From Schmidtea polychroa (lineage: Eukaryota): DNA of 64,000 nucleotides. Position numbers and translations under genes: made by a program. Numbering within the stretch: the first letter of the stretch is position 1; each line of letters starts with the position of its first letter. The stretch lies in the NCBI GenBank assembly GCA_044892525.1, contig CM097885.1:806001-870000 (forward strand), in the 5' to 3' direction. Below, piece by piece: positions 20,295-64,000 of this stretch. The notes beneath the pieces were generated by a model that did not search any database, had not been told where the DNA came from, and saw nothing but the letters and a program-made list of their open reading frames with translations.

Positions 20295-20319
20295 CCCAAA
20301 AACGCCATCGCTCTGATAG

Positions 20320-22447: not shown

Positions 22448-22448
22448 T

Positions 22449-37289: not shown

Positions 37290-37314
37290 CCCAAAAACGC
37301 CATCGCTCTGATAG

Positions 37315-40300: not shown

Positions 40301-41030
40301 TGCATGGGCTACAAGCTGCACCCAAGTATTTCCCAGTAAAATGATCGTGATCTCTAACAGGATCGACGATACATTTCAAACAAAGGTAACAAACAGATGC
40401 ACTAACAAATTGACGTTGTTCAATTTTTGTTAATTTCATCATAGGTTTGCTACCCATTTTATAATAAAAAGGATGAACCTTATTTAATGCTATATCCTCT
40501 ATAGCACTTAAAAAACTCTCGACGCAATCTAAACCTATGAACTGTTGATAAGATTTAGATACGTCAAAGTTATTTACAAGTAAAAGACCAGCAGATATTG
40601 TCATGTGTCGTTGGAAATGAACATTATCAGAAGGTAAAATAGCCTCAAAATCGGCATCAACTACAAAAGGAGGAGTTACTGTTTTCGACCAGTCAGTAAA
40701 CTGCAATAATTTATTTTGAGGGAAAGTGTAAAGAGTTGTTCCTAATTGATTACGTTTACATAATATTTCATGTTTTTCCAGTGCGTGTTTGTACCTAAAC
40801 ATATTCAAACACCGATGGCACCATAATGAACGTATGCGTGTAGGACAACTAGTGTTGATACCACAATTCAGTAACCTATTTAAATTACTTATAGCAACGT
40901 AATGGAAATTGTTTCCTTTATTTAAAAGTAGTAAATTAATTACAGTTCCATTTAAAACTGTTTTCGACCAGTCAGTAAACTGTAATAATTTATTTTGAGG
41001 GAAGGTGTAAAGAGTTGTTCCTAACTGATT
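37315..41030 (-). pseudogene. Duplicated minus-strand pPolB fragments
   Basis: ORFs 37462-38631, 39444-39857 and 39924-40808 match those in copy 1. Confidence 0.9.
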
Positions 41031-45276: not shown

Positions 45277-48200
45277 TCAGTCATTAAGCAGGTGTTCTCT
45301 CAGAATGTGGTAACTACTAATCACGGCAGCTGTGCACGCTTTTCGTGCCAGTCCAACTATTTCGGATTATGATAGGCCTATTTTACTTAAGACTTGGTTG
45401 TTATTGCAATCCCATGACCCCAGAGTACCAATAACAAGGGCAGAGATAGTTGCTTTAGCCTTATGTGCCTTACCGATGTCAAGAGCCAAATTAGCATATT
45501 TGATGTAGTTATTTCTTGTCGCCATTTTAAAGTTCTCCCTTTGTTCATATGGGACCTTAATGTCAAGGATATGGATGTTATTATTTCTGGAGGATTTTAT
45601 AACTAAGTCAGGTTTAAGAGTCGATGTCACCCCTTGTGGTGTAATTTCAATGTCAAGATGAAAGTTTAGGTTTGAAAGGTAATCACAGACCGCTTCAAGA
45701 ACACGAGAGTGTTTATTTCTTCGCGCATTAATCTTCACCGGGCAATGGTTAAAGATATGAGCCTGTGTTTCAGGATGAGAGAAGCATTGTCGACAGAGTA
45801 TTGATTTTCCAGATTTGAGCCTATGAGGAGTGAAGTTGAGTTTTATGAGGTTATTACGAGCCTTGATAAGGAAGAAGAATTGAGCATCATTTAAAGTGTC
45901 CGTTTTCAGGAGGAAGTCAGCGGTGCTGCTATTAGTTATAGAGTTTGCAATATGACCTTGATAGGAAAGGGACATCCATTTTTCTGCATGAATGAGACCG
46001 ATAATGCTGTGTATGTATACCATATTTTCTACGGAGTAAGTCAGCTGATTTTCGAAATTTAGTGAAGATCGAGCGGGTTGGGAAAGATTTGGACGTGTTA
46101 CCATTAATCCAAGATAGAGCTGCTTCAAGGTTACCTTGACCGCGTGCAAGTGCAAGTTCGGAGAGGATGAGATTACGAAGAGGAAGATCAGAGGAATTTA
46201 ATGCACGTGCAAGGTGTACAATGCTCTGAATTAGGTACTCATCAATTGTAGCAGTGAGGCCGATTCCACCCATTTTAATGGAGGCGTATAAGAAATTATT
46301 ATTAATTTCAAGGAGTTTATCACCTAGAGAGAGTTTAATCAGTTTTCTAAATCTGTTGTCGAAGCCTTTTTGGGGAGTGCGATCCTTTATTATACTATCT
46401 TTATGGGAATCGAGGACATTATGAAGAATTTCACAGTTACGAAAGGGAAATATAAGTCGTGAGTGGATGAAGATTTTGATAGCATTTATCTTTTGAGAAG
46501 GGTGAAGATGTGAGTTTAATATTTTTTCGGAGTCTTTAATAGCAAGATTAAGAGGTTCATCAATGTTATGCCTTTTTGTACAAGAGAAATCAACTCCAAG
46601 ATATCTGTAGAAGTTAGAGTCATCCACCTTAGGGATAGTTTCGTCGTAAAGTTTAATCGGGTGGTAGTTAAACTTATCATCAAGGTGAAAGTAGCCAGAT
46701 TTTGAGGGTTTGAATTTAAGATTAGCCTGTGAAGCTAGGCGGACAGTTTCAAGAAGAGCGGATGTAATTGAGGAGTATGAGTTAGAAATCAGTACGATGT
46801 CATCGGCGTACGCTAGAATACCTACATTCATATTGCCAAATAAAAAACGGTGCGAGATTAAGATATTTTTAAGAATATAATCAATAGAAAGACAAAAGAG
46901 AGTCATTGAAAGTGGGCATCCTTGTTTAACCCCTTTCAGAATAGGAACAGTCTGCGAAAGTTCTCCTTCACAGTCGAAGATCGTTTTAACATTTTCGTAC
47001 ATGTTATTAATAAGTTTAATGGTGTTAGGATCAAGGCCCATTGTAGATAAGGTGTGCCAGATAAGGTCATGTAGTACAGAGCTAAAGGCGTCAGTGATGT
47101 CCAGCCATATAATATGAAGGTCTGTCTTGTTACGTAAAGAAGCAAGCGCATCCATCGGGGGCACCGATTGCTTTCTGATTATTAGAAATGAGGTTACCCT
47201 GCTTAATCCAACCAAGAAGTCTGTTATTAAGGAGTGATGAGAAGATGCGGTATGCTGTATTCATAACAGAGATTGGTCTCCACGAACTAGCCTCATGGCT
47301 TGTCTCGTTCTTACCAGATTTAAGTATCAGTTTTGTACGAAAGGTTTTCCATTTAGAGGGACAGATGGAGTTTCTTTGGATGTTGTTGCATAAGGATAAT
47401 ATAAGTTCAAGGTCAGGTGAGATTTTCTTCCAGTTAGCAAGAGTGATAAGATCTAATCCTGGAGCAGTGTTATCAAGATTTGAAAAGATGTATTTTATTT
47501 CGTCAATGTCAAAAGGGGTTGAAGAGTAGTGGTGTTATAGGGCTTAATATTGATGGAAGAAGGGCTATCAGTTGGGTATTTAGATTTAACTGTCTGCAAT
47601 GATGCGAGTCGGCCGGAGGCCGGCGAGCTGAGTGTTTTCTCGTGTTTAAATTACAATTAGAATTAATTAATCTATAGTCATTATCATAAATTAATTTGCT
47701 ATTCTTATTATTTAGATTAGAGATATTGCCACTTAAATTACAATTAGGGTTATTTAATATATAGTTACAATTTAAATTATAATCATCATTAGTTAAATTA
47801 CTATTCTCATTAATTAAATTAAAATCGTTGCAATTTACTTTACAATTTGAATAATTCAAGTTATAATCGCTATAGAAATTTTGATTATAATTACCTTTAT
47901 TTCTATTATTTATAATGTGAATCCTACGAGCTGGGCAGAAGGATTTCCACGAGGCATTGAATAGGTCTTTGGGTGTTTCGTCTGTAGTCCTAGCTTCTTT
48001 ATTTCCATTATTAAGAGTGTGAATCCTACGATCAGGGCATAAGGATTTCCATGAGGCTTTAGATAGGTCTTTGAATGTTTCGTCCGTAGTCTCAGATTCA
48101 CTGTAAAGAGGTCTGGCAGGATGGGCATTACTGTTCAGGTCTGAGGAAGCATTCGCATATTTGTTCGAGATCTTCCTAGCAGGACAAAGTCTGCTGTTCA

Positions 48201-48990
48201 TCATTTCACGAGTGTTCGGTGTCATGGTTTTAGGAGCGTTTCTTCCAAGTCCGTCAGGAGGAGCTGTAGTAGGATTATGGATTCCAGTTCTAGAAGGGAA
48301 ATTAGATTTTGTAACATAAGGGTTTTTCTTATCAGTATCTCCAGGATTGGAGCTTCTTCCATCCATAGCTGCTTCATTGGTGTAGACGGCCGATTTCTGC
48401 CCAGTGCTATTAATGATATATAGCAGTATTTCTGCTAAGCACTGGGTAACGGCGGGTAACAAGTAATTGAAAGGATTTAGATTTTGAAGATGCATTATAA
48501 AAATTTTTTCTGCTATGAATGTTATATAGGAGTGATTCTCCTAAGCACTGGGAAACGGCGGGAGTAATCTTTTGACAATTTAAATAATTAGTGTACATTA
48601 AAGAAAGATTTTTGAGGTAAAAAGGGGTGCAGTTAAGGCTAGAGATTATCAAGATTAGTATTTGATGAGGCACTGCTCGATAGTTGGACATCATCGCAGT
48701 CTTCATCATCAAGATCACAGGTATTAGTTTTATTGGTAGGAGGGTTTAAGTAAAAAGGAGTATTATTATCCATAGTGTCCGACGAAGCTTTAAGGACTGG
48801 AGTGATAGGAGTTGTAGCTGGACTCCTTCTCCTGGTAGTATTCCTCACTATATCTGCGTATGTTTTTGATGTAGCTTCTTTTGCATTCATTCTGTTTATT
48901 TCGTCTAAGTACCTAGGATATAGATAAATATTGGAACTGGGGCATAATTTACTCATAATCCGAAGGCTTCAATGGTTATACGTCAGCTGC
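45277..48990 (-). mobile_element. Degenerate R2-superfamily (RLE) non-LTR retrotransposon, element 1
   Basis: RT motifs APGLD, WRPIS, GVKQGCPLS, LAYADD and YRYLG. CCHC finger CRQC...HIFNHC. Endonuclease KPDLV...LDIKV. Several frameshifts and stops. Confidence 0.92.
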
Positions 48991-49379
48991 TTCTGAAAGA
49001 GTAATTCCCGTCATCGGGGCTCGTATTAGCTGTATAGTTTATTAATCTTTCCGGCATTATTCTATTCGGTATCCTTTGGGCAATCTATTTCGTGCTCGCG
49101 TGTATTGTATGGTTTATTGGCATCAGTGTTTTCATCTTTCCGGCATTATTCTATTCGGCATCCTTTGGGCAATCTATTCGGGGCTCGCTTGTATTGTAAA
49201 GTTTCCTCCACTTTTAATCTTTCCGTCATATTTCATCGTATTATAAGACATAACGCCATCATTTATTAGTGGAAAGTCAAGACAAGTCACATAAAAACAG
49301 TAAAAATTTAAAACTAGAAAAGCCATCACGATGCAGAAGTAAAAAATAAAAATTAAAAAAACCATCACAAGGCACGGTT

Positions 49380-51478
49380 AATAAAAAGTTAGTAAAAAGC
49401 CATCACAAGGCACAGTAAGTAATATGGGTAAAAAGACCACATGATTATCACAAACATAACAGTATAAATGAGTACACAAGTAATCGTAGTAATAATTATA
49501 GTAATTATAGTACTTAGTAAATAGTAATAATTATAGTAATTATATTAGTTATAGTAATAATAGTACCATCCCGAGGTATAATAAGAATAGGATCATTATG
49601 CTAAAAACAAATAAAGTAGTAGATGTTAGTAGATATAGTCGGTATCAAATTACAGTATATATAGATAATTATATACAATAGGATATTATACAGGCAAATA
49701 GTAAAAAATTCATTCTATATTGTGTTAAGTATATGGTCCATGTAAATTTTATAGCTAGCTATTACTGCTGTTTTTATGCATTTTTTTGCAAGTGCGTGTA
49801 TTTCCTTATCAGTGAGGCCTATCTGGGTAAGGTGTTTGTCGTTTTCAGTGTCCCACGTGCCCAGAGTTCCTACTATTAAAGCGGATAAGGTCGTTTTGGT
49901 TTTATTAATTTTACCGGTCTCTAGGGCAAGGCTCATATACTTATCACGGTTATTATTGCGTGCGAGTTCAAAATTCTCAAGCTGGTCATAAGGGACTTTT
50001 ATATCTAATAAATGAATTTTATAATTAGGTCAGGTCTAAGTGTGGTGTTTACTCCTGGTGGCGCTCTCTCTACATCAACATCGAATTGTTTGGATATTAG
50101 GTATTCTAGTGTTGTATCCAATACATGATTGTGTTTATTTCTCCTTGCATTTTGGGTGTGTGTGCAGTGATTAAAGATATGTGCATGTGTTTCCCAGTCT
50201 ATCTTACATAGTCTACATAATATATTTTGATTTTCCTTGTGTCTATTTATACTATAATTTAGACTGAGACTATTATTACGGGCTTTAATTATTGGTTGTC
50301 AGTTAATGTATGCTCTTTGATAAGGTATGCTGCTAACTTATTATTTCCTATTGTTTTTGCAATATGTCCCTGATGAACCATATTGTGCCATTGCTCAGCA
50401 TACCATTTGCTAGTAATTGTGTGTAGTGCAGATGATGTAGAGCTCATATTTTCGTTATTTATATAATTTATTTCGTTATTATAATTAATTTCAAGATTAA
50501 AAAGTCCCTTAATTATTATTATTTTACAGGTAATGTTAAATTTTTCGCGTATTCTTTTGGCGGAATCCCTAAATTTAGAAAAAAATAGTAATGGTGCCAC
50601 TAATATCACCAGTAATGTCAGTGTTTAACCAGTCAAGTGCTTTATTAATATTAATATCTTTGTTGTGATGTCTAAACTTAACAGTTTCAATTAATTCATG
50701 TACTATAAAATCTCTCATTTTAGTATCTGTGGAGTTTAATATTTTAATTAAGTATGTAATGCTTTGTATTAAATATTCGTCGATAGTTGGTGTGATTCCT
50801 AAGCCTCCTCGAGAGCAACTCGCATAAATGAAATCATTATTCATATTCTGGTGTATGTCTTGTAGTGCGTTCTTAATCAGTCTTTTAATTTTCTGGTCAA
50901 AGCCAAGTTGTTTATCGAGTTGTTGAACTACTCGAGTTCTATTGCAATCCAGCACCATATGGTTTATTTTACATGTGCGAAACGGAAAAATAAATCGCGA
51001 GTGTATAAAAGTCTTATATGGATGGAGTTGTTGTGCTGGATGTAAGTTTGAGGTGAATATCTTTTCAGATTCGGCCAATGCCTTATTTAATATGTCATCT
51101 ATGCTATGCTTACTCTTTTCACCGAATCTTACTCCTAAGTATCTATATATATTATCTTTATCAATTATGGGTATTATTTCATTATAGATCGTTAGTGGTA
51201 TGTCAGAATGATTTTTATGGATCTGGAAGTAACCGCATTTACTAGGTCGAAATTTTAATTTGGTCTTATAAGTCAGTTTAGTTATATGTTCTAATATCAT
51301 CCTAATGTTTTCTCTTGACTCAGATATTAGAACAATGTCGTCAGCATACGCCAATATGCTGACATTGTATTGTTTATATATTAGTGGGAATTTATCAAAT
51401 ATGTCTCAAAGAATAAAGTCTATTGCTAGGCAAAATAATGTCATTGACATAGGGCAACCCTGCTTAACTCCGTTATAT
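49380..51478 (-). mobile_element. 5'-truncated degenerate RLE non-LTR retrotransposon, element 2 (distinct subfamily) with 3' UTR
   Basis: GVKQGCPMS, AYADD, YRYLG, a CCHC finger at about 50160-50220 and the C-terminus SALIVGTLGTWD. Colinear with element 1 but clearly divergent from it. Confidence 0.9.
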
Positions 51479-51599
51479 GGGATCCGGATAAAACACCGAT
51501 ACAAAAAACTCGAAATTCTAACTTCGAAAACAAAAACACCGAAAAATATAATTTCGAAATGCAAAAACATCGAAAAATAAAATATCGAAAACATAAACA
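51479..51599 (+). mobile_element. Short DNA-transposon-like terminus (GGGATCCGG... with CGAAA subrepeats)
   Basis: Interrupts the RT at YNGVKQG and contains 6 CGAAA motifs. It is itself cut at the Polinton terminus. Superfamily not determined. Confidence 0.35.
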
Positions 51600-52070
51600 A
51601 GTAGGTAGAAGTGAGCCCACGATGACTCATCGGCAAGGTCAACTTAAGGTCATAGAAAATTTTGAGGTCAACTTAAGGTCAAATTTTAAGGTCAATGTCA
51701 TTTTCAGGACAGTTTAAGGTCAATTTCAGCCATTTTAAGGTCAAACTCTGAGGTCAAAGTCGATTTTAGGCCATTTTAAGGTCAAATTTTGAGGTCAAAG
51801 TCGATTTTAGGCTATTTTAAGGTCAACTTCTGAGGCCAAAGTCTAATTTTTCCAAATTTTAAGGTCATAGAAAATTTTAAGGTCAACCCCCCTACCCCCT
51901 ACCCCTATTTTTAAGGTCATAGAAAATTTTAAGGTCAACCCCCCTACCCCCTACCCCTATTTTTAAGGTCATAGAAAATTTTAAGGTCATAGAAAATTTT
52001 AAGGTCAACCCCCCTACCCCCTACCCCTAATTTTAAGGTCAAATCAAGGTCAAAAATTAAAAATTTTCTA
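51600..52070 (+). repeat. Putative left terminal inverted repeat with (T)AAGGTCA subrepeats and three CCCCCCTACCCCCTACCCCT blocks
   Basis: 5'-AGTAG start. About 20 AAGGTC(A)-type units. The first 16-21 nt match other termini in the window in motif and spacing. The partner TIR and TSD are outside the window. Confidence 0.65.
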
Positions 52071-52466
52071 AGTCCATTTAACGAATTACTTTATAGAAAA
52101 TTTTCAAAGTCAAAACACGTTTTAATACTACGTTTGCAAATGTCTTTGTTACTCGTGCATTTGCATTGCAAATGTCTTTGTTACTCATGCACTTGTATTG
52201 CATATGTCTTTGTATTACACACCTTAAGGATAGAAAAATATTTCTAAGCGAGATCTAAAGTGAATGTGTGTAAAGGGCAATAAATAAGGGTAAAATCAAA
52301 ATTTTTTAAGAAAATACATGTAATTTGATTAAAATTTATGAAAACTATATATATATATTTGTTTTATTTTGGTCAGATAATCTATGTGTGTCTGTATATG
52401 AAAACATTGATAAGGAGCAATAAATATCAAATCAAATCTCTTATGTTTTACATATAACTATATTAA

Positions 52467-52500
52467 CCAATCAGAATCATAACCAGTATTAGTATAAATA
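52467..52500 (+). promoter_or_regulatory. CCAAT box plus TATA box upstream of the Bcl-2-like gene
   Basis: CCAATCAGAATCAT at 52467-52480 and TATAAATA at 52493-52500, about 30 nt before ATG 52528. The same 14-mer recurs at 54936-54949. Confidence 0.55.
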
Positions 52501-52527
52501 AAACAGAATATTTAAAATTAATGTACA

Positions 52528-52833
52528 ATGTCAAAATCAAATTTTGCAGAAAATATCTTAAAAGGTTTGGTTAATGAGAATATCGCACAAGCCTCAGTTT
52601 CCTAGTTAAACAAACTGAGAAAATCATTGAGGGAAACCATGTCGACTACCAAACCATGCTTGATATAGAATGCCTGGAGACGAAGAAATTTTATTTCAAT
52701 AGGATTTTCGATTGTCTATTCGACGACCAAATGAAGTGGACCAGAATAATCATAGGTTTTACCTATATGAAGATTATTATAGAAAAAGGTCTATACGATG
52801 TTGACCATTATTATCTGTGGTCTCAAGAAGTAA

Positions 52834-52908
<75 letters not shown>

Positions 52909-53094
52909 TTGTAGATAGTCAAATCCAAGTTTTCGCCATGGATCGATGCCAATGGTGGATGGCACACACTAGTCGAACTTGCCCAGAACGCACAAGAAAT
53001 AGAGCAAGCCAAAGCAAAAGTCAAAAGTTATATGCGATTAGCCTTGGGAGTTGTTGTAATATATGTAATGTTTAAATATTTAAATAAAAGTTAA
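52528..53094 (+). CDS. Bcl-2 family protein; two exons (intron 52830-52914); probable 1-nt frameshift near 52577
   Basis: Exon 1 ...RIFDCLFDDQMKWTRIIIGF... is BH1-like. Phase-0 intron GAA|GTAAAT...TTTGTAG. Exon 2 IVKSKFSPWIDANGGWHTL (BH2) ... LALGVVVIYVMFKYLNKS* (tail anchor). The ATG at 52528 is one frame off from the 52578-52829 reading frame. Confidence 0.85.
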
Positions 53095-53136
53095 TGTTGT
53101 TATTTATAAATATTATACTTTAAATATACACTCAAA

Positions 53137-53540
53137 CTAAAATTTATTAACACATTCACATTCATCATCTCCGCATTTCATAACATTTTCAACGATATGA
53201 TCTATACAATCGTTATATACACGCGGTTCGGTATACTTAATATTTTCAGTTATATAATCCGTAAATTCCTCCTTAGGTTCATCAATTTCTTGAATGATTT
53301 CCTCGTCATCTTCTTGTGTGTTTCCTTCATTAATTTGTTCTGTTATTTCCTCATCAGTTTCATCAAATCTTGAATCTTCACTCTCGGCTACCCAGTCTAT
53401 ATTTAATGCATTTGAAACAGATAATATATCCTCCATTTTTACACCAGATATTTCTGCTAATTTTGCCAACAAAAAGTTGATTAAATGTTCTAAACAATAA
53501 ATAATTCGATCATTAACTAACCATATTAGCCTTTTTCTAA
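53137..53540 (-). CDS. Hypothetical acidic protein; 5' end unresolved (possibly spliced or decayed)
   Basis: 111-aa E/D-rich ORF ending KCGDDECECVNKF. The frame stays open a little upstream of the track start, with no ATG. Confidence 0.45.
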
Positions 53541-53704
53541 CGTCATTATTAACACTTTAAAACTATAATGTAAGTTTGTTTATAGATTGTCTTTTTTAAA
53601 GTTTGCATGTATTTTGCATTGATATTGCAATTTCCTGGTTAAGTAAATGAAAAACAAATAGGACAAAATACATTTATTAAAAACAATAAATATAGCAACA
53701 TTTA

Positions 53705-54127
53705 TTAAAATAGCTGTGAAAGTCTAGCAGACATAATTTTCCAAATTGGAGAATACACATCATTATTATCAACTTTATATCCCTGGATTGCTATTGTTAT
53801 ATACCAATTTTCGTTTTCTTTAAAGCTGATTTCATCAAAGGAATCATAAAATCTTGCATATCGGTTGTTGAACCATGCATGTTGATTACATGATAGATTT
53901 GCATCCAACCGTTTGAAAACCTCATCAATAGATTTAACATCTATCATTGAAAGTGTGCCGGATAAGAATTGAAATTGAGTAGAAATTAGCTTGATCGGTG
54001 ACACAAATTTCATATTGATTTCTTCTTTTAAAAAATACATTTTGTAGTCGTGGAACATTTGAACAGGTTGTACAAGTTCTGCAACAACAACCTTTGGTTT
54101 TTCTGTGCTTGATATTTTCTTGGTCAT
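53705..54127 (-). CDS. Conserved Polinton accessory protein, possibly an OB-fold ssDNA-binding protein
   Basis: 140-aa ORF with an upstream TATA (54161-54170, minus strand). A decayed homolog at 2481-2905 shares KSIxxVFK and IQ(G)xKI...PIWKI. The SSB call is an inference from the beta-rich C-terminus. Confidence 0.65.
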   Translation of the reverse strand: MTKKISSTEKPKVVVAELVQPVQMFHDYKMYFLKEEINMKFVSPIKLISTQFQFLSGTLSMIDVKSIDEVFKRLDANLSCNQHAWFNNRYARFYDSFDEISFKENENWYITIAIQGYKVDNNDVYSPIWKIMSARLSQLF

Positions 54128-54314
54128 CCTGAATTATGATTGAATTGTAATGGTACAGGGTTTTTATACATATGACTATTGTTTATAAACCAATCAAATT
54201 GCAGTATGTCTTTGTTTTAATTACATTCAAAATGCATTGATGTTGCATTGTCATATGTTATATGTGTCATATTATTATTTTTATTGCTTTATTACTTTCA
54301 AACTAATTTCATTA

Positions 54315-54376
<62 letters not shown>

Positions 54377-54447
54377 CTTATTTATATTTCTATTACTATT
54401 TACTAAAAAGAAAAAAAATAAAACAACAAATAGTTAAACATAAAAAT

Positions 54448-54865
54448 TTATTTGGATAAAATTTGACAAAAATGATAATTACGAAGTGTCTTTACCAAAG
54501 ACCATTCGACATATCTCTGGTAGCGGAAATTGCAACAGCTACATCCCAAAATGCAAGGGTATTCTGCTTTCACTTCCTTCATTGTTCTTCCAATCTTCAC
54601 ATCCCAGAGAAATGTATTGATAATATCGAAAATCCAGATTCTGGTTTCATTGTAAATTAAATCTGGGATTATTGCAACATCTCGATCTTTGAGAATATCA
54701 TACAATTGCGGGTAATAAAAATACAATCTTTCCAGTATTATTGCATGATATTCATCTGTAAATAATACTAATATGATAAATACAATTAATATTAAAAAAT
54801 TTAAATTTACCATAATGTTCATGTTCTTTCATGGCAGCTATAGCTGAACTTTGAATATTATACAT
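54448..54865 (-). CDS. Hypothetical 120-aa Cys-containing protein; two exons (intron 54756-54810)
   Basis: ATG at 54865 gives MYNIQSSAIAAMKEHEHY, then G|GTAAAT...TTTACAG|AT joins in frame to DEYHAIILERLY...CILGCSCCNFRY. Confidence 0.6.
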
Positions 54866-55003
54866 GGTTTAAAAATGATAACTAAACCCAAAACATTTTG
54901 TTATAAATAATCATCATCAGCCAATTAGATTTCGACCAATCAGAATCATGCATTTCAGTTGCATCGAATTTGCAATCACATGATTTTTTTTTTTTTTAAA
55001 TTA

Positions 55004-55456
55004 TTAATTTAGTGATAATAAAAAATTTAAAAATTCTTTTCCTTCAATTATTGATTTAATTTCAGATATGATATTATCAACTATACATTTGTAATCAATA
55101 TTTTTTATTCCAAGAATTACTATCTTACCACTAGCGAATATATTTACACACATAGGGTTATATTTTATATATCTCAAAGCTGGAAATAATTCTGGTTCGT
55201 AAACACATGGTATTAATTTAGCCAATTCATTTAAATTACAAGAAAAACCCATATAGGAAGTTACGGTTATCGATTGTATTTTTAAATCATAAACATTATA
55301 TTCACTAGCTTTGATTATTTCCTTACACCCCATAATTCTACATTTACCAGTTTTGAAATATATTATGGGATATTTTTTACTTCTATTGATAAGTTGTTGT
55401 GGTTTCCCCATTTTTGATACATCAGATTTTGCTCTGTAATTTATATTTGAAAGCAT
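55004..55456 (-). CDS. TATA-binding protein (TBP)-like protein
   Basis: Two TBP repeats: IYFKTGKCRIMG, and KIQSITVT...NLNELA...YEPELFPALRY...NIFASGKIVILG. Confidence 0.85.
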   Translation of the reverse strand: MLSNINYRAKSDVSKMGKPQQLINRSKKYPIIYFKTGKCRIMGCKEIIKASEYNVYDLKIQSITVTSYMGFSCNLNELAKLIPCVYEPELFPALRYIKYNPMCVNIFASGKIVILGIKNIDYKCIVDNIISEIKSIIEGKEFLNFLLSLN

Positions 55457-55481
55457 TTTAATGAAATAATTATAAAACTCA

Positions 55482-55522
<41 letters not shown>

Positions 55523-55585
55523 TTTAAAACGGAGTTCATTTAAATTATCAATATAAACAATAATTATGTAGTTTAAATTTAAAAA

Positions 55586-56223
55586 ATGAAATTACGAAAT
55601 GATGCAGTATACCAAATCGTTGGTCCAAGCGGTAGCGGAAAAACATTATTTGTTTGTAAAATACTAAAATCAAATTTATTCAAAACAAAATTCAACAATA
55701 TTTATTGGCATAGGGGCGCCGACGAAGAACATGGATTGGCGCAATCAAGTTTCTGTCAGTTGAAAAACATGAAAATAGTAAAGGGATTTGATAAAAACTG
55801 GTCCAGTCGGTTGAAGAAAGGTGATGTCATCATTATCGATGATTTATACCAAGAAGCCAATAAAGAAAAAGATTTTAATAATTTATTCACAAAAATCAGC
55901 AGACATGTCGGTGTAACAGTTATTTTCATAACACAAAATCTATTTCATCAAGGTGGTGCACATCGTACACGTAATTTAAATGTACAATATTTAGTTATTT
56001 TCAAGAATCCTAGAGATGCAACTGTCATTGATTTTCTTGGACGACAAGCATACCCTAATAACCGTAATTTTCTTATCAGTGCATTTCAAGATGCTACTAA
56101 AATACCGCTGGATATATATTTCTTGATTTCACACAACAATGTCCTGATGATTTACGGGTAAAAACTGATATTTTCAACCCAAAAGGTGCCATGGTTTATA
56201 AACAAAATTCAAAACAAAGTTGA
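55586..56223 (+). CDS. A32/FtsK-like genome-packaging ATPase; frameshift near 56105
   Basis: Walker A GPSGSGKT, Walker B IIIDD, ISRH and ITQN motifs. The expected C-terminus GYIFLDFTQQCPDDLRVKTDIF continues in another frame to TGA at 56221-56223. Confidence 0.92.
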
Positions 56224-56235
56224 AACATATAAAAC

Positions 56236-56724
56236 ATGTTTTCAAAAACAAGGATAACAAGGAAGAAAGAACCAAAAATTCCACCAACCACTAGTTATAC
56301 TCCATCTAAAGAACTTGTTACTGAAAATTTTCCTGCAAAAAATCTTATTTCGAAAAATCCTAAACCTAAACCTAACCGTAAAACCAGTAAGAAATTAAAA
56401 GTTGTTAAAAATCATCGGAGTTTCCCGTTTTTTAATACATTGTTAAAGGCACCGAGTATAAAAAGAATGAATATTTTGCAATCATTTCCAAATTTTGTTG
56501 TCGATGATTTACTCGATATTATACTTAAAGTAGTCAAAGGCAAGATTAAAATCAGTAAATCCAAAAAGCATATATTGGGTAAACATAGGAAACCTTTGTT
56601 ATCATTAGTAAATAATAAAAATCGTAAACAAATGAGAAAAATTATATATAAACAACAAGGCGGATTTATTGGTGCATTGATACCTTTGGCATTATCATTA
56701 TTAGGTGGAGTAACACAGTCATAA
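56236..56724 (+). CDS. Basic virion core protein (adenovirus pX/pVII-like), putative protease substrate
   Basis: 162 aa, K/R-rich. Ends QQGG|FIGALIPLALSLLGG, a di-glycine adenain-type cleavage motif followed by a hydrophobic tail. Confidence 0.7.
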   Translation: MFSKTRITRKKEPKIPPTTSYTPSKELVTENFPAKNLISKNPKPKPNRKTSKKLKVVKNHRSFPFFNTLLKAPSIKRMNILQSFPNFVVDDLLDIILKVVKGKIKISKSKKHILGKHRKPLLSLVNNKNRKQMRKIIYKQQGGFIGALIPLALSLLGGVTQS

Positions 56725-56785
56725 ACAATGGGAGCTAATCCTTCATTACCTGACATTAAATTTAATATTAAATCTTCTTGTTGTA

Positions 56786-57173
56786 ATGGAGAAGATTTGG
56801 ACAAACCCAGAAGACGAAGCGGGTTTCGGTGGAGTCGCAAAATTAAAGACAAGAGTTCCAAATTCGAAAAAGGAAACCCAGAAGTGGTTATCAGACCAGC
56901 TTGCGTACAGTTTGAACAAACCAATGCAGAAACGATTCCCAACAAGAACATATAAAACATTTGGAATAAACGATTTATGGCAAATGGATTTGATGGAGAT
57001 GATACCATATTCAAAAATTAACAATGGTTATAAATATATTTTAACATGTATTGATGTATTCAGTCGGTTTGCCCGAGCGATTCCAGTCAAGGCAAAATCT
57101 GCAGATAAAATGTCCAAAGCTATTAATAATTTATTTAAAAAAGGACATCCTAATAACTTGCAAACAGATTTAG

Positions 57174-57232
<59 letters not shown>

Positions 57233-57871
57233 TTTTATTTTTTAGGTAAAGAATTCTACAACAGTAAAGTCAAGCAAATCCTCAATAAACTGAAAATAAA
57301 CCATTACTCAGTATATTCTCAATACAAAGCAGCTTATGTTGAAAGATTTAACCGAACATTGAGAGATAGATTAAAGAAATTATTTGTGCATCAAGGTAAT
57401 AAAAAATGGGTAAATGTTTTACCAAAAATAATAACCAGTTATAATCATTCATCACATCGAGGACTGAATGGATTAAGACCGATTGATATCACTTCAAAAA
57501 CATTCTATTCTAAAAAACATGTAAAAATTGCAAAACCTAAATATAAAGTAGGTGACCATGTTAGAATTAGTAAAATTAGTGCATCACCATTTATAAAAAA
57601 TTTTGATACAAATTGGAGTGATGAAGTCCTTGTAATTTTGAAAATAAATACTAGCCAGAGTCCTGTAATGTATGTCATTAAAGACAATGATAATAATGTT
57701 GTACAAGGAAAATTTTATGAGCAAGAATTACAAGTTATTCCTCCTCCAAAAGTATTTAGAATTCAAAAAATATTGAAAACTAAAAAGGTCGGCAAGGATA
57801 AACAATACTATGTCAAATGGCATGGATATCAAAACCCATCATGGATATCAGAAAAAGACCTAGTAAAGTGA
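56786..57871 (+). CDS. Retroviral-like (RVE) integrase with C-terminal chromodomain; intron 57174-57245
   Basis: Motifs WQMDL, IDVFSR, QTDLG^KEF and VERFNRT. Chromodomain FRIQKIL...QYYVKWHGY...SWI. The poly-Ile run in the ORF track is a 72-nt GT-AG intron. Confidence 0.95.
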
Positions 57872-58884
57872 ATTTCTATACTATTTTACCAAGCAATAGC
57901 TGCCCATTAATTCATCCGGACAATCAAGCCAGCAAATTCATGGTCAATCTCCAGAATCCGATTTCTTTAAATGGTGACTGGGAAGTTGCACTGCAAGATT
58001 TTACATTCGTGTACAACACATTCCCATTTTATAGTCAATGTAAGATTGATTTCAAAAAGAATGTTCTGAAAACATGTAGCGGTATCTTTGTCATCAGTAA
58101 TTATGATAAAACATATCATATTCCAAATCAAATATTAGATCAGCATTGCTATATATTTTACAAGGATGGATTAAATATCAGTTGTGATTTTAAACCATTT
58201 ACAATAACATTCGAAACTATTGAAGATGCCAAACGAATGGGTTGCAATAAGTTGAAAAATGATGTTATGGAAACAGAATATTTATTACGTTTTGATCTAT
58301 TTGAAGCAAACAGTTTAATGAAAGAAGAAATCAAAATATCAGTGTCGTATAATAATGAAGTTGAGAAATCATTCACCTTTGCTGACGAATTATATATTGA
58401 TAAACTTGATGTGTTACTTAAATATTTAAAGTACAATTGTTCACACATATTTAAAAGTTTGGACATTGTGAAAGATTTGCTGTTTACTTTCAGTTTGAAT
58501 GATGAAATTTGCGAAGTTACATTTGATAAAAATTTGACAAATACACTTGGATTAGAGAAGCAAAAATATCGAGGAAAAGCTGATGGTATACGTAAACCAA
58601 GAATACTTGAACATCATCAACAAATGTTCATATATACTAATATTATTGAGCCCATAATTGTTGGTGATTCCAGTGTTCCTCTATTGAAATCGGTATGGAT
58701 TGGAAAATATGAACACGATGAAGTTGTCAATATAAATATCGATAATCCCATGTATTTACCAATTGCAAGCTCATGTATAAACAATATAGAAATAAATATT
58801 CGTGACGATAGTGGAAACCTTATAAACTTTCCAAAAGATTCGAAAACTTATTTGACATTACATTTTCGTAAAGTAGATGGCTAA
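57868..58884 (+). CDS. Minor capsid protein (penton, single jelly-roll)
   Basis: N-terminus FYTILPSNS...NQASKF...L.GDWEVAL and C-terminus IYTNIIEP...PLL...YLP...IEINIRD...LTLHFR. The conserved start position reads GTG and overlaps the integrase stop. Confidence 0.9.
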   Translation: MNFYTILPSNSCPLIHPDNQASKFMVNLQNPISLNGDWEVALQDFTFVYNTFPFYSQCKIDFKKNVLKTCSGIFVISNYDKTYHIPNQILDQHCYIFYKDGLNISCDFKPFTITFETIEDAKRMGCNKLKNDVMETEYLLRFDLFEANSLMKEEIKISVSYNNEVEKSFTFADELYIDKLDVLLKYLKYNCSHIFKSLDIVKDLLFTFSLNDEICEVTFDKNLTNTLGLEKQKYRGKADGIRKPRILEHHQQMFIYTNIIEPIIVGDSSVPLLKSVWIGKYEHDEVVNINIDNPMYLPIASSCINNIEINIRDDSGNLINFPKDSKTYLTLHFRKVDG

Positions 58885-59239
58885 TTCTGATATTATTAGT
58901 ATGTATAGTGATAGCCAATCTGGCGGTGAATTACCATACTTCGTTGGTAAACAGTACGGATCAGGATGGCTAAAAACAATTGGGAGATTTGCACTTCCTA
59001 TTCTTAAACGTATTGGTAGTTTTGGTATGAAAACTGCAAAAGATGTAATTGTGAATGAACAGAAAATATTACCATCCCTAAAATCAAATGCTTTATCTGA
59101 ATTAGGGAAGGTTCTACCAAGTGTTGCTGGTATGTTTCAAAAAGAGTCAGTCCCTGAATATGTTCCAAAACGTAAAAGACATGGAATATCGCGTATAAAC
59201 AAACGAATGAAAGGACATGGAACTATATTTGCAAAATGA
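58877..59239 (+). CDS. Small core / membrane-active virion protein
   Basis: QSGG and QYGSG motifs, then an amphipathic helix WLKTIGRFALPILKRIG and a basic tail. Lies between the two capsid genes. Confidence 0.75.
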   Translation: MANSDIISMYSDSQSGGELPYFVGKQYGSGWLKTIGRFALPILKRIGSFGMKTAKDVIVNEQKILPSLKSNALSELGKVLPSVAGMFQKESVPEYVPKRKRHGISRINKRMKGHGTIFAK

Positions 59240-60456
59240 TTTGTGGTAAATCCGAATTATGTATATTTGATAGACCATCGCCTCAAGCGGTAATAGAATT
59301 TGGCGCCTTTGAGGAAGTTTTTCCTATGAATTCAATTACCGATAGTAGAAATGATATCGAGTTTTATATTAATGGTTCGCAAACTGAATATTTAGATTTG
59401 AACGATACATTATTGACTATTCAGATAAAGGTTGTAGATAAAGATAGAAAGGTTTTGGATGCCAATGCAGATGTAATACCGAACAATTTCCTGTTTCATA
59501 CTCTTTTTAAAGATGCAGTGTTGGGATTTAATAATATCAAGATTGAGGGTGGAAATAATACATTCATTCACAAGGCTTTGATAGAAACTATTTTAAATTA
59601 CAATTCTGATACTAAAAATACCTGTCTTACACCTATGGGTTATGCAGCAACAGATGATGAAAGAAAAAAGTGGGTTAAAGGCTCAAAAATATTCACTATG
59701 TGCTCATCATTACAACTCGACTTTATGGATCAACCGAAATATTTACTTCCTGGAGTTAATGTACATATTAGACTGAAAAGATCAGATTCTGCATTATCTC
59801 TTACTAGTGCAGGTGCACCAATATGTCAATTAGTTGATGCAAAATTATTGGTGAGAAGAGTTCGAGTGGACCCCTCAGTATTAGCTGGTCATCAATTGGG
59901 TCTTAATTCAAAACATGCAATTTATCCATTAAAGACAAAGGAAATTGTACAATTCGCTATTGCTAAAGGTGCTTCATCATTCTATAAAGAACAAATATTT
60001 GGTGACAGAAGAATGCCTAATTTTATCCTGATAACATTTCAAAGTGAAACTCAATATAACGGATCATATACTACATCCAGCTCAATTTTCAAAACCTTTG
60101 GTGTTACATCATTGACTTTGTCTAAAAATACCGATTATAGAGAAACATATACTCAAGATTTCGAAAGAGATAATTACTGTGCTACATATATGCAGAGTAT
60201 TGTTAGAAATTTGGGTTATTTAGATAAAAACTTAAATTGTGGAATAACTCATGAAGAATTTAAAACCAAATACCCATTTTTTACATTTGTTTTAGCCCCC
60301 GATTTTGATTTAAATCAGAGTCAATTACCACAAAACGGGAATTTACGACTGGATATAAAGTTTGCAAGAGCCATTACTGAACCGGTACATGTTATTATAT
60401 ATGGAGTATTTGAAAATGAAGTTCAAATTACTGCAAATAGAACTGTGCTAGTATAA
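59236..60456 (+). CDS. Major capsid protein (double jelly-roll, hexon-like)
   Basis: 406 aa with KSELCIF, YLDLNDTLL, QPKYLLPGV and GNLRLDIKF motifs typical of Polinton major capsid proteins. ATGA overlap with the upstream gene. Confidence 0.93.
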   Translation: MICGKSELCIFDRPSPQAVIEFGAFEEVFPMNSITDSRNDIEFYINGSQTEYLDLNDTLLTIQIKVVDKDRKVLDANADVIPNNFLFHTLFKDAVLGFNNIKIEGGNNTFIHKALIETILNYNSDTKNTCLTPMGYAATDDERKKWVKGSKIFTMCSSLQLDFMDQPKYLLPGVNVHIRLKRSDSALSLTSAGAPICQLVDAKLLVRRVRVDPSVLAGHQLGLNSKHAIYPLKTKEIVQFAIAKGASSFYKEQIFGDRRMPNFILITFQSETQYNGSYTTSSSIFKTFGVTSLTLSKNTDYRETYTQDFERDNYCATYMQSIVRNLGYLDKNLNCGITHEEFKTKYPFFTFVLAPDFDLNQSQLPQNGNLRLDIKFARAITEPVHVIIYGVFENEVQITANRTVLV

Positions 60457-60485
60457 ATGTGTGAATAAATCTAGATACATTTGTC

Positions 60486-60864
60486 ATGGAGTAAGTTTTC
60501 TTTAAACTAATAAAATTATTATGTTAGTTCTATTCAGATAAATCGAATTGGTACTCAAATATTAGGTAAAGAGTTTGTTGGAGTGTACCCACTAGACAAA
60601 ATCCCCTATTTAGATGTGAATCAAGCCATAATTGTCAACACAGATTCGTCTACTCTGGGTGGAGAACATTGGATTGCAGTCTATGTGAAGCCGAATAAAA
60701 TATATGTTTTCGATCCAATGGGATTTTACTATCCAGCCCTATTGATCAAAAAGCTATCAACTATTGGTCAAGTTGATTACAATAAAATTCGGTTTCAACA
60801 TCCATTAACAAATACTTGTGGACAACATTGTCTAGCTTGGCTAATGTATAAACATCTTTGTTAA
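60486..60864 (+). CDS. Adenain-like maturation cysteine protease; intron 60491-60527
   Basis: ATG GA|GTAAGT...CTAAT...TTAG|T splices to MDSIQINRIGTQILGKEFVGVY. Catalytic motifs GEHW, FDPMG and Q...CGQHC; 113 aa. Confidence 0.9.
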
Positions 60865-61512: not shown

Positions 61513-64000
61513 TCATTCGTCTGCAGATGATTCATCAAGAGGCAAAATATTATTTAATTCATTATCTAAAATATTATAATGCCCATATGCGAAGCTCTTG
61601 TTCTCTTCAACCCAAACCCTTTTATCATCGTTATTTGTAAGTTCTAAATGTAAATAATTGATGGTTTCGTGTACCAAACCGGGATTGATTCACCTTCGGT
61701 ATATGCATTCCAAGATAACAATCCACATACGATTGATGTGTGATTTCTGTTCCCTTTAATGATACACCTTTGGCTTTATTTATAGTATCATTATCACTAG
61801 TTAGCAAACTATAGCATTTGGGTCTGAGGAATACCCATTCTTGATATGATTTGCCTTTGTTTTCGTCCTTGAATTTCCCAATTACAGAATCCAAATTTCG
61901 TGAATATAATGGATCTGTAGGATCGTAGTTGCTGGTGTCTAACAATCCGTCAGCAATCATTGCAGGAAGTAATTGTGATCGCAATTTGACATATTTACAT
62001 TCGAGGAAGAATGAGTCTGTATCCCCGGCTATGATATTTATTTGGCAATCGAACTGTGCTCGATATTTTGACAGTTCAATATATTGTAGTTCATACATTC
62101 TAAGTTTAGATAAGTCTAGCACTGTTTGACCAATGTAGCTAGGCCTATCTAAACAAACTACATCTTTATTCAGCAAAAGGGCAATCAAATCATCAGCAAT
62201 TTTAATTGAACGTCTAAATGTTGGCTTTGAAGTGTATTTAACCAATTTTTCGGCATTGTTGCACAATCTCAGATTTATTCTTTTCTTCAGATTCTCCACT
62301 GTCTTGCCGTAAACACTATTATTTAAAAGTTTATAAAAATCTCTATCTAAACTATTTTGTGATTCAGCTCGAAGTTGGGTATTTGTGTTGATATAATCCT
62401 TCAATATCGGCTTTTGTGTAAATTTTATTGCCCGATGTATATTGGTGACTTCCACTCCAAGGGCCATATATAATTTCAAAAGTCTCCAATGAATAACATA
62501 ATTAGTTTTCGCATGATGGGTTAATAATAATTTTGGTATATTTGAATCTGGTGGACACATTTTCTCTGCTGCGACTGGGAAATCATCTAATAGGTCGTGG
62601 ATATTTGACGGTATGACTAAATCAACTTCCAATGTGTATCCATAAGTTAAATTTTCTAGTTTGGAACTAATACAGTCAACTAAAATGGATAATAATTCCA
62701 CTTCATTATATATCCACTCAAAATCGCTACATGGCAAGTATTGGCTTAACGCCCACCCATACAGGTTGTTTATATCGATATAAAGCAACTCTGTTTCATC
62801 ATCTGTTACTGCGAAGTGTTTATTTACAAATGTGAGACCACCACGGATCCCACCCTCGAAGAAATTATACATCTCCATGTCCATCAGTAATTCCACTGGT
62901 TCTTCTAAGGTCATGAGCGCAGATGCCCAAGACATTCCAGGGATTCCAAAAAAATTGAGTGGCTCGAGTCCATTATGTGCTTTTGATCTTGCTCGAAATT
63001 GTTGGAAGAAATCGGCAAGTAAAAACACATCAAGTTTTAAATAAATTTGTAAATAATCCATTAGAGTTTCGCAACTTGTTTCTTGCCATATTTGTTGCGC
63101 TATTATATACTCTTCATTTGTAACGCCTTCCCAAATAGCGGGCAATTCATATGTTGTTTCTAATATTTCCTCACTTGTGGCAAAATCATAAGGAAAAATT
63201 CCTTTGTTGTTTATGATGGTTCCAGTATTGAATACTGAACGGGTCAAAGGCAATTCGTTCAATGTTTTTACTGCATTATGTAATGAAGTATTGACAAACT
63301 GATATGAGTCAATAAATCTTATTGTAAATTTACCCAGCCATGCTATCAATGTTAAAAATTTCTCTGTGCTTGTTGGTATGCAGCTGAGACTCCAATGATG
63401 AAATTGATTGAGCCCATATTTCAAAATGTGATGTAGATCATACCCTTTCAGATTATGAAATACGATGGGTAATGTTTCTCTGATTTTCCTTTGTTGATTG
63501 CATACATTGCATGAGGCTCCGAGATATTTGCCAGTGAAATGATCATGGTCTTTCACTTTCTCTGGCATTGGCTTTTTGCACAAGTAACAATTGACAACTG
63601 TGTGGAATTGCAGCTTTTCCTGATTTGTCAAAAATTTCATTTGACAATGCCCACTTGTCTTATAATAAACCTTCACTATATTGTTGACAATATTTTCTAC
63701 ATCCATCAGAAATCTGTATACACAATCTGGTCCAATAAAATGACTATATTTCGTTGACCCAGTAAAATTATTTACCAGTAACAGCCCCGCTGCTATAGGT
63801 AAATGTTTTTGGTGTTGTCTTTCATCAAGAGGTAAAACAGCTTCGAAGTCAGCATATATAACAAAAGGCGGAGTTACCATTTTTGACCAGTCATTAAATT
63901 TTAAATCTGAGTTTTCTGGCAACGTGTATAATGTTGTGCCCAATTGGTTTTTCTTGCATAAAGCTACATGCCTGTCAAAAGCATCTTCTCTTCTAAAACC
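61513..64000 (-). CDS. Protein-primed DNA polymerase B (5' part outside window); frameshift near 61640
   Basis: Exonuclease motifs IYADFE, HNLKGYD and YLKLD. EndoVII-like insert CYLC...DHDHFTG...CNVCN. Polymerase motifs YIDINNLYG, KLLNNSVYGK and AGDTDS. The tail LTNNDDKRVW...AYGHY is in a shifted frame ending at 61513. Confidence 0.96.

Follow-up and report, generated by a model that had tools for sequence, protein, structure and literature searches.

Two promoter classes and a self-encoded mini-TBP in an integrated Maverick/Polinton of Schmidtea polychroa

The 64,000-nucleotide stretch of Schmidtea polychroa DNA analyzed here (contig CM097885.1, positions 806,001 to 870,000; hereafter the window) harbors a 17,454-bp integrated Maverick/Polinton with AG...CT ends, in which a cassette of accessory genes adjoins the left terminal inverted repeat (TIR). 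The element is of a known kind; what is new is a two-class promoter design combined with a self-encoded mini-TBP, a 150-residue relative of the TATA-box-binding protein. Class I promoters, of the CCAAT plus TATA type, precede three accessory genes, while class II promoters, marked by the box YATAAAC, precede the packaging ATPase, the putative capsid gene and other core genes. The gene content, both motif classes, their conservation and their constraint at the DNA level are observed. From these sequences, we consider it likely that host factors start the accessory genes and that the mini-TBP then switches on the YATAAAC genes.

An earlier reading of the same sequence (the original prediction) had placed five accessory genes between the terminus and the structural block, and the interval from the left TIR (51600-52426) to the ATPase (55586) does contain five genes, three of them with introns. 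These genes and their promoters are listed below, with negative numbers giving distances from the start codon.

52465 to 52500, plus strand: class I promoter of the Bcl-2-like gene, CCAAT at 52467 (-61) and TATAAATA at 52493 (-35).
52528 to 53094, plus strand: Bcl-2-like gene, exon 1 52528-52829, intron 52830-52914, exon 2 52915-53094.
53137 to 53546, minus strand: acidic orphan gene, presumed exon 1 53531-53546, intron 53457-53530, exon 2 53137-53456.
53578 to 53584, minus strand: acidic-gene class II box, TATAAAC (-38), found at 33 of 33 starts.
53705 to 54127, minus strand: conserved gene of 140 aa resembling a protein that binds single-stranded DNA (SSB-like), possibly with an OB-fold, unconfirmed.
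54161 to 54197, minus strand: class I promoter of the SSB-like gene, TATAAAAA at 54168-54161 (-41) and a reversed CCAAT at 54190 (-67).
54448 to 54865, minus strand: small orphan Cys gene, presumed exon 1 54811-54865, intron 54756-54810, exon 2 54448-54755.
54902 to 54949, minus strand: class I promoter of the Cys gene, TATTTATA at 54909-54902 (-44) and reversed CCAAT at 54921 and 54936 (-60, -75).
55004 to 55456, minus strand: mini-TBP, 150 aa (154 in most sibling copies), Pfam TBP PF00352 with E 2.8e-15.
55457 to 55585, no strand: divergent promoter common to mini-TBP and ATPase, with a TA-type TATA on the TBP side and TATAAAC at 55552 on the ATPase side.

The YATAAAC box marks core genes across distant relatives

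The YATAAAC box surfaced on aligning upstream regions and was scored within 100 nt upstream of gene starts in non-redundant distant TBP-bearing loci. There, ATAAAC lies upstream of 61 of the 73 core-gene starts, against 7.1 in shuffles: it precedes the ATPase in 22/22 cases (the non-redundant set among 26 with upstream sequence), the capsid gene in 9/9, the penton gene in 9/11, the integrase in 8/14, orf162 in 5/7, orf120 in 4/5 and the protease in 4/5. It is found on the sense strand only (reverse strand 0/22 for the ATPase), and Y directly precedes it in 58 of the 61 cases, 21 of which are CATAAAC variants. The ATPase box sits at -31 to -49 in 20 of 23 matches, integrase and capsid boxes are often farther out, and class II boxes mostly stand about 35 nt before the start. 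Upstream of distant TBP genes, YATAAAC is never found (0/55). As judged from these alignments, the box is constrained at the DNA level, through codon choice where it overlaps the upstream gene: the dipeptide Ile-Asn is spelled ATAAAC in 23 of 38 instances near the ends of upstream genes versus 9 of 77 in gene bodies (p = 1e-7).

The same partition holds within this genome, where the box lies upstream of the ATPase in 37/38 cases, of the capsid gene in 30/30 and of the acidic gene in 33/33, and is absent upstream of TBP (0/37) and SSB-like (0/33) starts. In the window, it is borne by the acidic gene, the ATPase, orf162, the integrase, the penton gene (as a G variant), orf120 and the capsid gene. 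The original prediction had described the structural genes as tightly packed, with overlapping start and stop codons. Such overlaps occur at penton/orf120 (58877-58884) and orf120/major capsid protein (59236-59239), but the genes are not promoter-less, since each has its own box. Its proposal of an early and a late module is borne out insofar as two regulatory classes exist, although the acidic gene, within the cassette, uses the other class. The two-class split gains support beyond the argument first made for it, because the structural genes share a box of their own across distant relatives. The true viral lifestyle to which the original prediction took the two modules to point is a conjecture.

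As a control, three partial insect-type relatives from IMG/VR, without a detected TBP, were examined. These contigs carry a phospholipase-type module (a label given by eye); L173 (a near twin of L174) and L177 (more distant) were excluded. The box occurs in 0 of their 18 genes, and their ATPases have a canonical TATA at -45 to -50. TBP-less members of the element's own capsid lineage did not appear in IMG/VR scans with capsid, ATPase and PolB; the corresponding search of prokaryote genomes gave one locus, TBP-bearing, and that of a phage collection gave no match. When a distant capsid served as the query against this genome, every match belonged to a subfamily of the same element; 9 of the 10 fetched bear TBP and the tenth is rearranged.

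The mini-TBP is predicted to retain the saddle, with a remodelled first repeat

The TBP fold of the predicted gene product is confirmed, in the form of a confident predicted model. The AlphaFold model (pLDDT 95.6) is a two-repeat saddle that superimposes on archaeal TBP 2z8u with Z 12.7 (137 aligned residues, root-mean-square deviation (rmsd) 2.8, residues 1-138). The protein is saddle throughout, with no extra N-terminal domain, and its 122 relatives are mostly 140-170 aa long. Cellular TBPs (PF00352; 2z8u, 1ytb, 1cdw) and giant-virus TBPs share this architecture (Z about 12, rmsd 2.4-3.0 over 135-140 residues); the mini-TBP differs from these in being about 40 residues shorter and in lacking the helices of the first repeat, which are absent from the model and gapped in the profile alignment, helix 2 being deleted. 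The C-terminal repeat is kept, with its EPELF stirrup. Across 77 mini-TBP sequences, F34, F91, F107, E89, S62, R95 and N105 are invariant; N6, R40, M42, S62, R95, C103 and N105 are family-specific invariants. F34, F91 and F107 correspond to three of the four intercalating phenylalanines of TBP, the fourth falling in the remodelled part; the DNA-facing residues are among the invariant ones.

In the window copy, the TBP-side TATA of the divergent promoter is expanded into a TA repeat (55481-55522). In the subfamily represented by L163 and L165, TBP is only about 60% identical to that of the window while the adjoining ATPase is 93-94% identical; there, the TBP-Cys segment has been exchanged and the YATAAAC box is unchanged. 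No co-variation is visible between the base preceding ATAAAC and TBP residues.

Whether the mini-TBP is the reader of the box has to be weighed against a host factor in that role, be it canonical TBP, a host TBP paralogue or a forkhead protein, in which case the mini-TBP would have some other role, for example that of a repressor, of a decoy for TFIIB or of a factor binding the origin. The genome does encode a TBP and several TBP-like loci, TATAAAC is one base off the consensus, and ATAAACA fits a forkhead word. However, GTAAACA, the more usual form of the forkhead word, shows no enrichment (1/22) and nothing is found on the reverse strand (0/22), the box occupies the position of a TATA box and its CATAAAC form (21/61) makes a poor canonical TATA, the relatives without a detected TBP lack the box, and the DNA-facing residues of the mini-TBP are invariant. 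We regard a host reader as unlikely and favor the mini-TBP as the factor that reads YATAAAC.

A second alternative takes its model from virophages, which share promoter motifs with their helper virus: the box would mimic the late promoter of a co-infecting helper, whose machinery would transcribe the structural genes. The nearest viral folds to the mini-TBP are giant-virus TBPs, and several papers take up the promoter motifs of virophages and Polinton-like viruses. Against this stand the GT-AG introns in the integrase and the protease, which point to nuclear polymerase II, and the element's possession of its own TBP. No such helper is known, and we consider this explanation highly improbable.

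Class I promoters and their persistence in diverged subfamilies

The original prediction had attributed a CCAAT plus TATA arrangement to three genes, and this stands for the Bcl-2-like, SSB-like and Cys genes, except that the Cys gene box TATTTATA is non-canonical on the gene strand. The 14-mer CCAATCAGAATCAT is indeed exact at 52467 and 54936 and occurs nowhere else in the window, but it is not conserved as a 14-mer across subfamilies. Among 300 shuffles of the cassette, 9 produced an exact 14-mer repeat containing at least 4 G/C, and 86 produced one when composition was left free. Enrichment of the core ACCAATCA is a stronger signal than the 14-mer repeat: the cassette has three copies where shuffles average 0.15 and never exceed 2, and the element's remaining 13.5 kb has none. 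The three cores lie 61-75 nt before the start codon, each with a TATA-type box at -35 to -44.

Across the family, it is these boxes that persist and not the exact 14-mer. The Bcl-2 promoter boxes are kept, at about the same spacing, in 7 of the 7 distinct upstream sequences listed, and class I boxes are retained in subfamilies whose Bcl-2 exon 2 has diverged to dS 1.6-2.2, even as the 14-mer itself varies; another subfamily has one mismatch to it at the Bcl-2 site. In this genome, CCAAT lies upstream of 32 of 33 SSB-like starts, whereas it precedes no start of the ATPase, capsid, acidic or TBP genes. In the window, too, CCAAT is missing before the acidic and TBP-like genes. Among 55 non-redundant upstream regions of distant TBP genes, canonical TATAWAWR is present in 26 (shuffle 5.7) and CCAATC in 8 (shuffle 1.8). 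The SSB upstream regions of distant loci are uninformative, as introns precede the chosen Met.

The motif, judged with the NF-Y flanking consensus, suggests that NF-Y is the likely reader of the class I CCAAT boxes. The RCCAATCR core of NF-Y promoters lies about 60-100 nt upstream of the start site, a range given in PMC11802806; the class I CCAAT boxes stand about 45-60 nt from the presumed start sites, at its near edge. In other subfamilies (G000 C1 near 6.2 Mb and 80.8 Mb; L127, L137), an extra multi-intron accessory gene lies between the protease and PolB and is preceded by two CCAAT boxes in reversed orientation together with a TATA box, which is the class I design.

The accessory genes and the modularity of the cassette

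Selection on the cassette was assessed by pairwise ratios of nonsynonymous to synonymous substitution rates (dN/dS) against diverged copies, after a dS filter; the pairs are not independent. The values are 0.32 for Bcl-2 exon 2 (11 pairs), 0.26 for the acidic gene (22), 0.17 for the SSB-like gene (23) and 0.19 for TBP (2), alongside 0.10 for the ATPase (21) and 0.08 for the capsid gene (18); for Bcl-2 exon 1 and Cys exon 2, zero pairs passed the dS filter. On these comparisons, the cassette genes measurable by dN/dS are under purifying selection.

The identities originally proposed for the five genes fared unevenly, the TBP being the one confirmed by its fold. The Bcl-2-like assignment is weakly supported: BH1- and BH2-like words and a hydrophobic tail are recognizable by eye, PF00452 is the best match in 4/4 exon-1 sequences scanned (E 0.0035-0.028, below the cut-off), and the sole matches in the PDB are to Bcl-2-related A1 (E 0.26-0.48). 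Exon 1 has a frameshift near 52590 in the window copy, whereas 8 of the 11 matched copies are open there. A sibling copy has a homologous GT-AG intron of 46 nt, which is spliced out in contigs from two sequencing runs, X1 and X2; these come from one study, and their RNA nature is a guess. The acidic orphan consists of 32% D+E, and the frame of its intron, which follows a short presumed first exon, contains stops in 17 of 28 copies. The Cys gene was called Cys-rich, but it has only 5 Cys in the 101 residues of exon 2, with a CxxGCSCC-like word; this exon has 0 stops in 25 full-length copies. Both are orphans, the Cys gene has no Pfam match, and no splice joint was found for either intron among the read contigs.

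The SSB identity is an unconfirmed guess from a sequence pattern and acidic tails. The family comprises 217 proteins, is the usual neighbor of the TBP gene and occurs in 37 of 80 distant TBP loci; in run X2, poly(A) follows 30 nt past the stop codon. Searches against PDB, Pfam and PHROG profiles were negative. A T7 gp2.5-type SSB model (PF21265) matched 1 of 37 members (E 0.048), in a weakly linked subgroup; this model is not among the 25 families shown in a profile search with 127 members, and a profile comparison between the family and the divergent subgroup carrying the T7 SSB match gave a probability of 1%. The single-sequence fold (pLDDT 33) is unusable, and the Atlas models are blank or low. 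Among the five genes, host control is plausible for the Bcl-2-like gene only.

The cassette is modular. In 38 genomic stretches of this genome, 28 chosen by TBP and 10 by capsid, TBP is present in 37, the SSB-like gene in 35, the acidic gene in 33, the Cys gene in 26 and Bcl-2 in 20; in one genome copy, Bcl-2 lies beside the right TIR. The 80 distant metagenomic TBP loci contain the ATPase in 29 cases and homologues of Bcl-2, acidic and Cys genes in none, an absence that is weak because many of these loci span only 1-3 kb. The position of TBP varies as well: it adjoins the ATPase in many loci, has PolB on one side and the ATPase on the other in L091 and L098, and follows the capsid gene in L067, L073, L079 and L082. 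On gene order, the conserved unit is TBP plus the SSB-like gene rather than the terminal five-gene block. Distant TBP-bearing elements carry other cargo, recognized by eye: a ubiquitin-conjugating E2-like gene (L046:225-719), a dual-specificity phosphatase-like gene (L048:4008-4316) and a leucine-rich-repeat open reading frame (ORF; L081:1918-3327).

The original prediction likened the five genes to an adenovirus early region, that is, one host-control module set against a polycistronic late block. A Bcl-2-like gene beside the terminus, CCAAT plus TATA promoters at three genes, purifying selection on the measurable cassette genes and the overlaps among structural genes all accord with it. The adenovirus early region (E1A, E1B-19K, E2A DBP) is similar in its terminal position, its Bcl-2-like gene and its spliced polymerase II units. 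The likeness nevertheless fails on content, as none of the five genes matches an adenovirus Pfam family and the cassette has no LxCxE motif for Rb binding. Furthermore, some subfamilies have lost Bcl-2 or Cys or have it in another place, TBP stands elsewhere in distant elements, and each structural gene has its own box. The acidic gene bears a class II box, and this mixing of promoter classes within the cassette further weakens the comparison. Adenoviruses are not known to encode a TBP. We consider the adenovirus-like explanation improbable; the flagged region would instead be a switch plus interchangeable cargo, not an E1-like unit.

Proposed mechanism and comparison with known systems

In the first step of the proposed mechanism, transcription of the class I genes would be initiated by NF-Y and TFIID of the host, and the mini-TBP gene itself would be started from a TATA box without CCAAT. 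The products of this step would include the Bcl-2-like protein as a brake on apoptosis, the SSB-like protein as a probable helper in replication, and the mini-TBP. In the second step, the mini-TBP would occupy YATAAAC and bring in TFIIB and polymerase II from the host. In cellular TBP, the C-terminal repeat with its stirrup contacts TFIIB and the box's 5' half, and the N-terminal repeat faces the 3' half. YATAAAC departs from TATAWAW in its 3' half, and the C-terminal repeat with its EPELF stirrup may hold the TATA half and TFIIB while the rebuilt N-terminal repeat reads the AAC half. If the mini-TBP reads YATAAAC in this way, the class II genes would consequently be late, as a third step. That the box is never present at the TBP gene is in keeping with a feed-forward switch. 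Polymerase II-type processing is seen as a spliced Bcl-2 intron and poly(A) after the SSB-like gene in the likely-RNA runs, and introns together with poly(A) imply nuclear polymerase II.

The closest functional parallel is the late system of beta- and gammaherpesviruses, whose TBP mimics (BcRF1, ORF24, UL87) read TATT late promoters, according to PMC4893493 and PMC7498053. In both systems, a virus-encoded TBP fold goes together with structural genes that bear a non-canonical TATA variant and early genes that bear host-type upstream elements. As described there, the herpesvirus mimic is large, recruits polymerase II by its own N-terminal domain and needs five partners, in contrast to the 150 aa of the mini-TBP. 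The two proteins are homologous only at the fold level, the mini-TBP sequence being closer to cellular TBP and keeping the EPELF stirrup, and the Maverick box varies at its 3' end (AAC) whereas the herpesvirus box varies at base 4. By analogy, the mini-TBP system would work like the herpesvirus type but is not a member of it.

Several observations weigh against a mini-TBP switch for late genes. The window protease has a canonical TATAAAT, and ATAAACA resembles a forkhead site. The box also stands before the acidic gene and near the window PolB, and may therefore mark TBP-dependent rather than strictly late genes. One X2 contig runs unspliced across the presumed intron of the acidic gene. The control is small, consisting of three partial contigs of one other lineage, so that the presence of TBP is confounded with ancestry, and the 80 distant loci were picked by TBP and may share hosts or studies. 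The herpesvirus switch takes six proteins, and no partner was found in the Maverick element. Finally, cellular TBP can bind C at the corresponding box position, to judge from the title of PDB entry 1qn3.

The element resembles the Mavericks/adintoviruses of Starrett et al. 2021 (PMC8502044) in its TIRs, 6-bp duplication, pfam03175 PolB, rve integrase, A32/FtsK ATPase and adenain; it differs in having no Oncoid/LxCxE gene. Bcl2 homologues, an 'SSDBP' map label and swaps between PolB and virion-gene modules are already reported in that source; in the text consulted, TBP is mentioned solely in legend labels of figures devoted to non-animal MELD viruses, and 'promoter' is not used. A Maverick TBP-promoter pair is not described in the parts consulted of the open literature, including PMC11071308, PMC11296320, PMC11131425, PMC10748475 and bioRxiv 2026.06.19.733378.

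Structure of the element and its genomic setting

The element displays the hallmarks of Mavericks/Polintons: TIRs with AG...CT ends, a 6-bp target duplication, PolB, rve integrase, packaging ATPase and adenain. Its PolB is of the pfam03175 class, as in alpha adintoviruses, and no phospholipase match was found among the window ORFs scanned against Pfam. The remaining features are as follows.

51594 to 51599, no strand: left target-site duplication, 6 bp, with its twin beyond the window at window-equivalent 69054-69059.
51600 to 52426, no strand: left TIR, with the right TIR at window-equivalent 68165-69053.
55586 to 56220, plus strand: A32-like packaging ATPase (Pox_A32 E 7.8e-7), frameshifted near 56110.
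56197 to 56724, plus strand: class II box (56197) and orf162, a basic 162-aa ORF (56236-56724).
56720 to 57871, plus strand: class II box CATAAAC (56720), a 75-aa ORF (56728-56955) and the rve integrase with chromodomain (56786-57871; rve E 9.7e-8).
57797 to 58884, plus strand: variant box ATAAAC (57798; G variant) and putative penton, 355 aa, named from gene order.
58776 to 59239, plus strand: class II boxes (58776, 58821) and orf120, a 120-aa ORF (58877-59239).
59194 to 60456, plus strand: class II box (59194) and putative major capsid protein, 406 aa (59236-60456), named from size, order and conservation.
60452 to 60864, plus strand: TATAAAT box, which overlaps the stop codon of the capsid gene, followed by the adenain-like protease (start 60486, intron 60491-60527; Peptidase_C5 E 2.3e-7).
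61631 to 64000, continuing to window-equivalent 65533, minus strand: protein-primed DNA polymerase B (PF03175 E 1.4e-28).

The 406-aa and 355-aa ORFs have no Pfam match, and their order is conserved in relatives; by order and size, they are probably the capsid and penton. GT-AG introns are present in the integrase (57174-57245), the Bcl-2-like gene (52830-52914) and the protease (60491-60527); that of the integrase is in frame and reads as poly-Ile, and expanded (ATT)n repeats occur in the integrase and Bcl-2-like introns. The 75-aa ORF (56728-56955) is conserved, starts Met-Gly and overlaps the integrase start, and MG...CC words similar to it precede the integrase in several distant loci; its product is possibly myristoylated, a guess from these residues. 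The window copy is damaged by the two frameshifts, near 52590 (Bcl-2 exon 1) and near 56110 (ATPase), and by a non-canonical splice donor in the acidic gene.

A genome search with the mini-TBP gave at least 150 matches, those listed all at least 92% identical, so the element family is large. Many genome copies are internally deleted or rearranged, non-autonomous derivatives (L033, L034, L026, L029 and others). The window PolB lies on the minus strand, and most other subfamilies fetched have, on the plus strand, another PolB that is about 60% identical to it; PolB thus differs while adjoining virion genes are 85-97% identical between subfamilies, which amounts to a swap of the replication module. 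The left TIR contains 17 AAGGTCA words, one TGACTCA and one octamer word (raw counts), AAGGTCA being a nuclear-receptor half-site-like word; the TIR of another subfamily has arrays of TGACTCA (AP-1-like).

The Maverick interrupts a retrotransposon without long terminal repeats that has a reverse transcriptase (RVT_1 match; window 45367-51599 and L021), and a probable MULE transposase ORF, judged by eye, lies immediately to its right. Elsewhere in the window, 19161-23783 and 36156-40802 are duplicated fragments of another Polinton-like PolB, with endonuclease VII matches and internal inverted repeats, within a 17-kb segmental duplication.

Biological significance

On balance, and with modest confidence, we lean toward a widespread animal Maverick lineage equipped with the smallest known virus-encoded polymerase II switch: a 150-residue TBP with a rebuilt half-saddle that, alone or with its SSB-like neighbor, would drive a late programme from a private YATAAAC box after an NF-Y/TATA early cassette. 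A cognate pair of factor and box makes gene switching in Mavericks testable with one small protein and a 7-base motif, and YATAAAC offers a family-wide marker by which gene starts and late genes can be located. According to bioRxiv 10.64898/2026.06.19.733378, virions of Mavericks have not been observed; if the proposed mechanism is true, a selected early/late cascade would lend indirect support to a lytic, particle-forming phase. The mini-TBP would then be a natural TBP of altered box specificity, and a small element would carry a built-in early-to-late switch.

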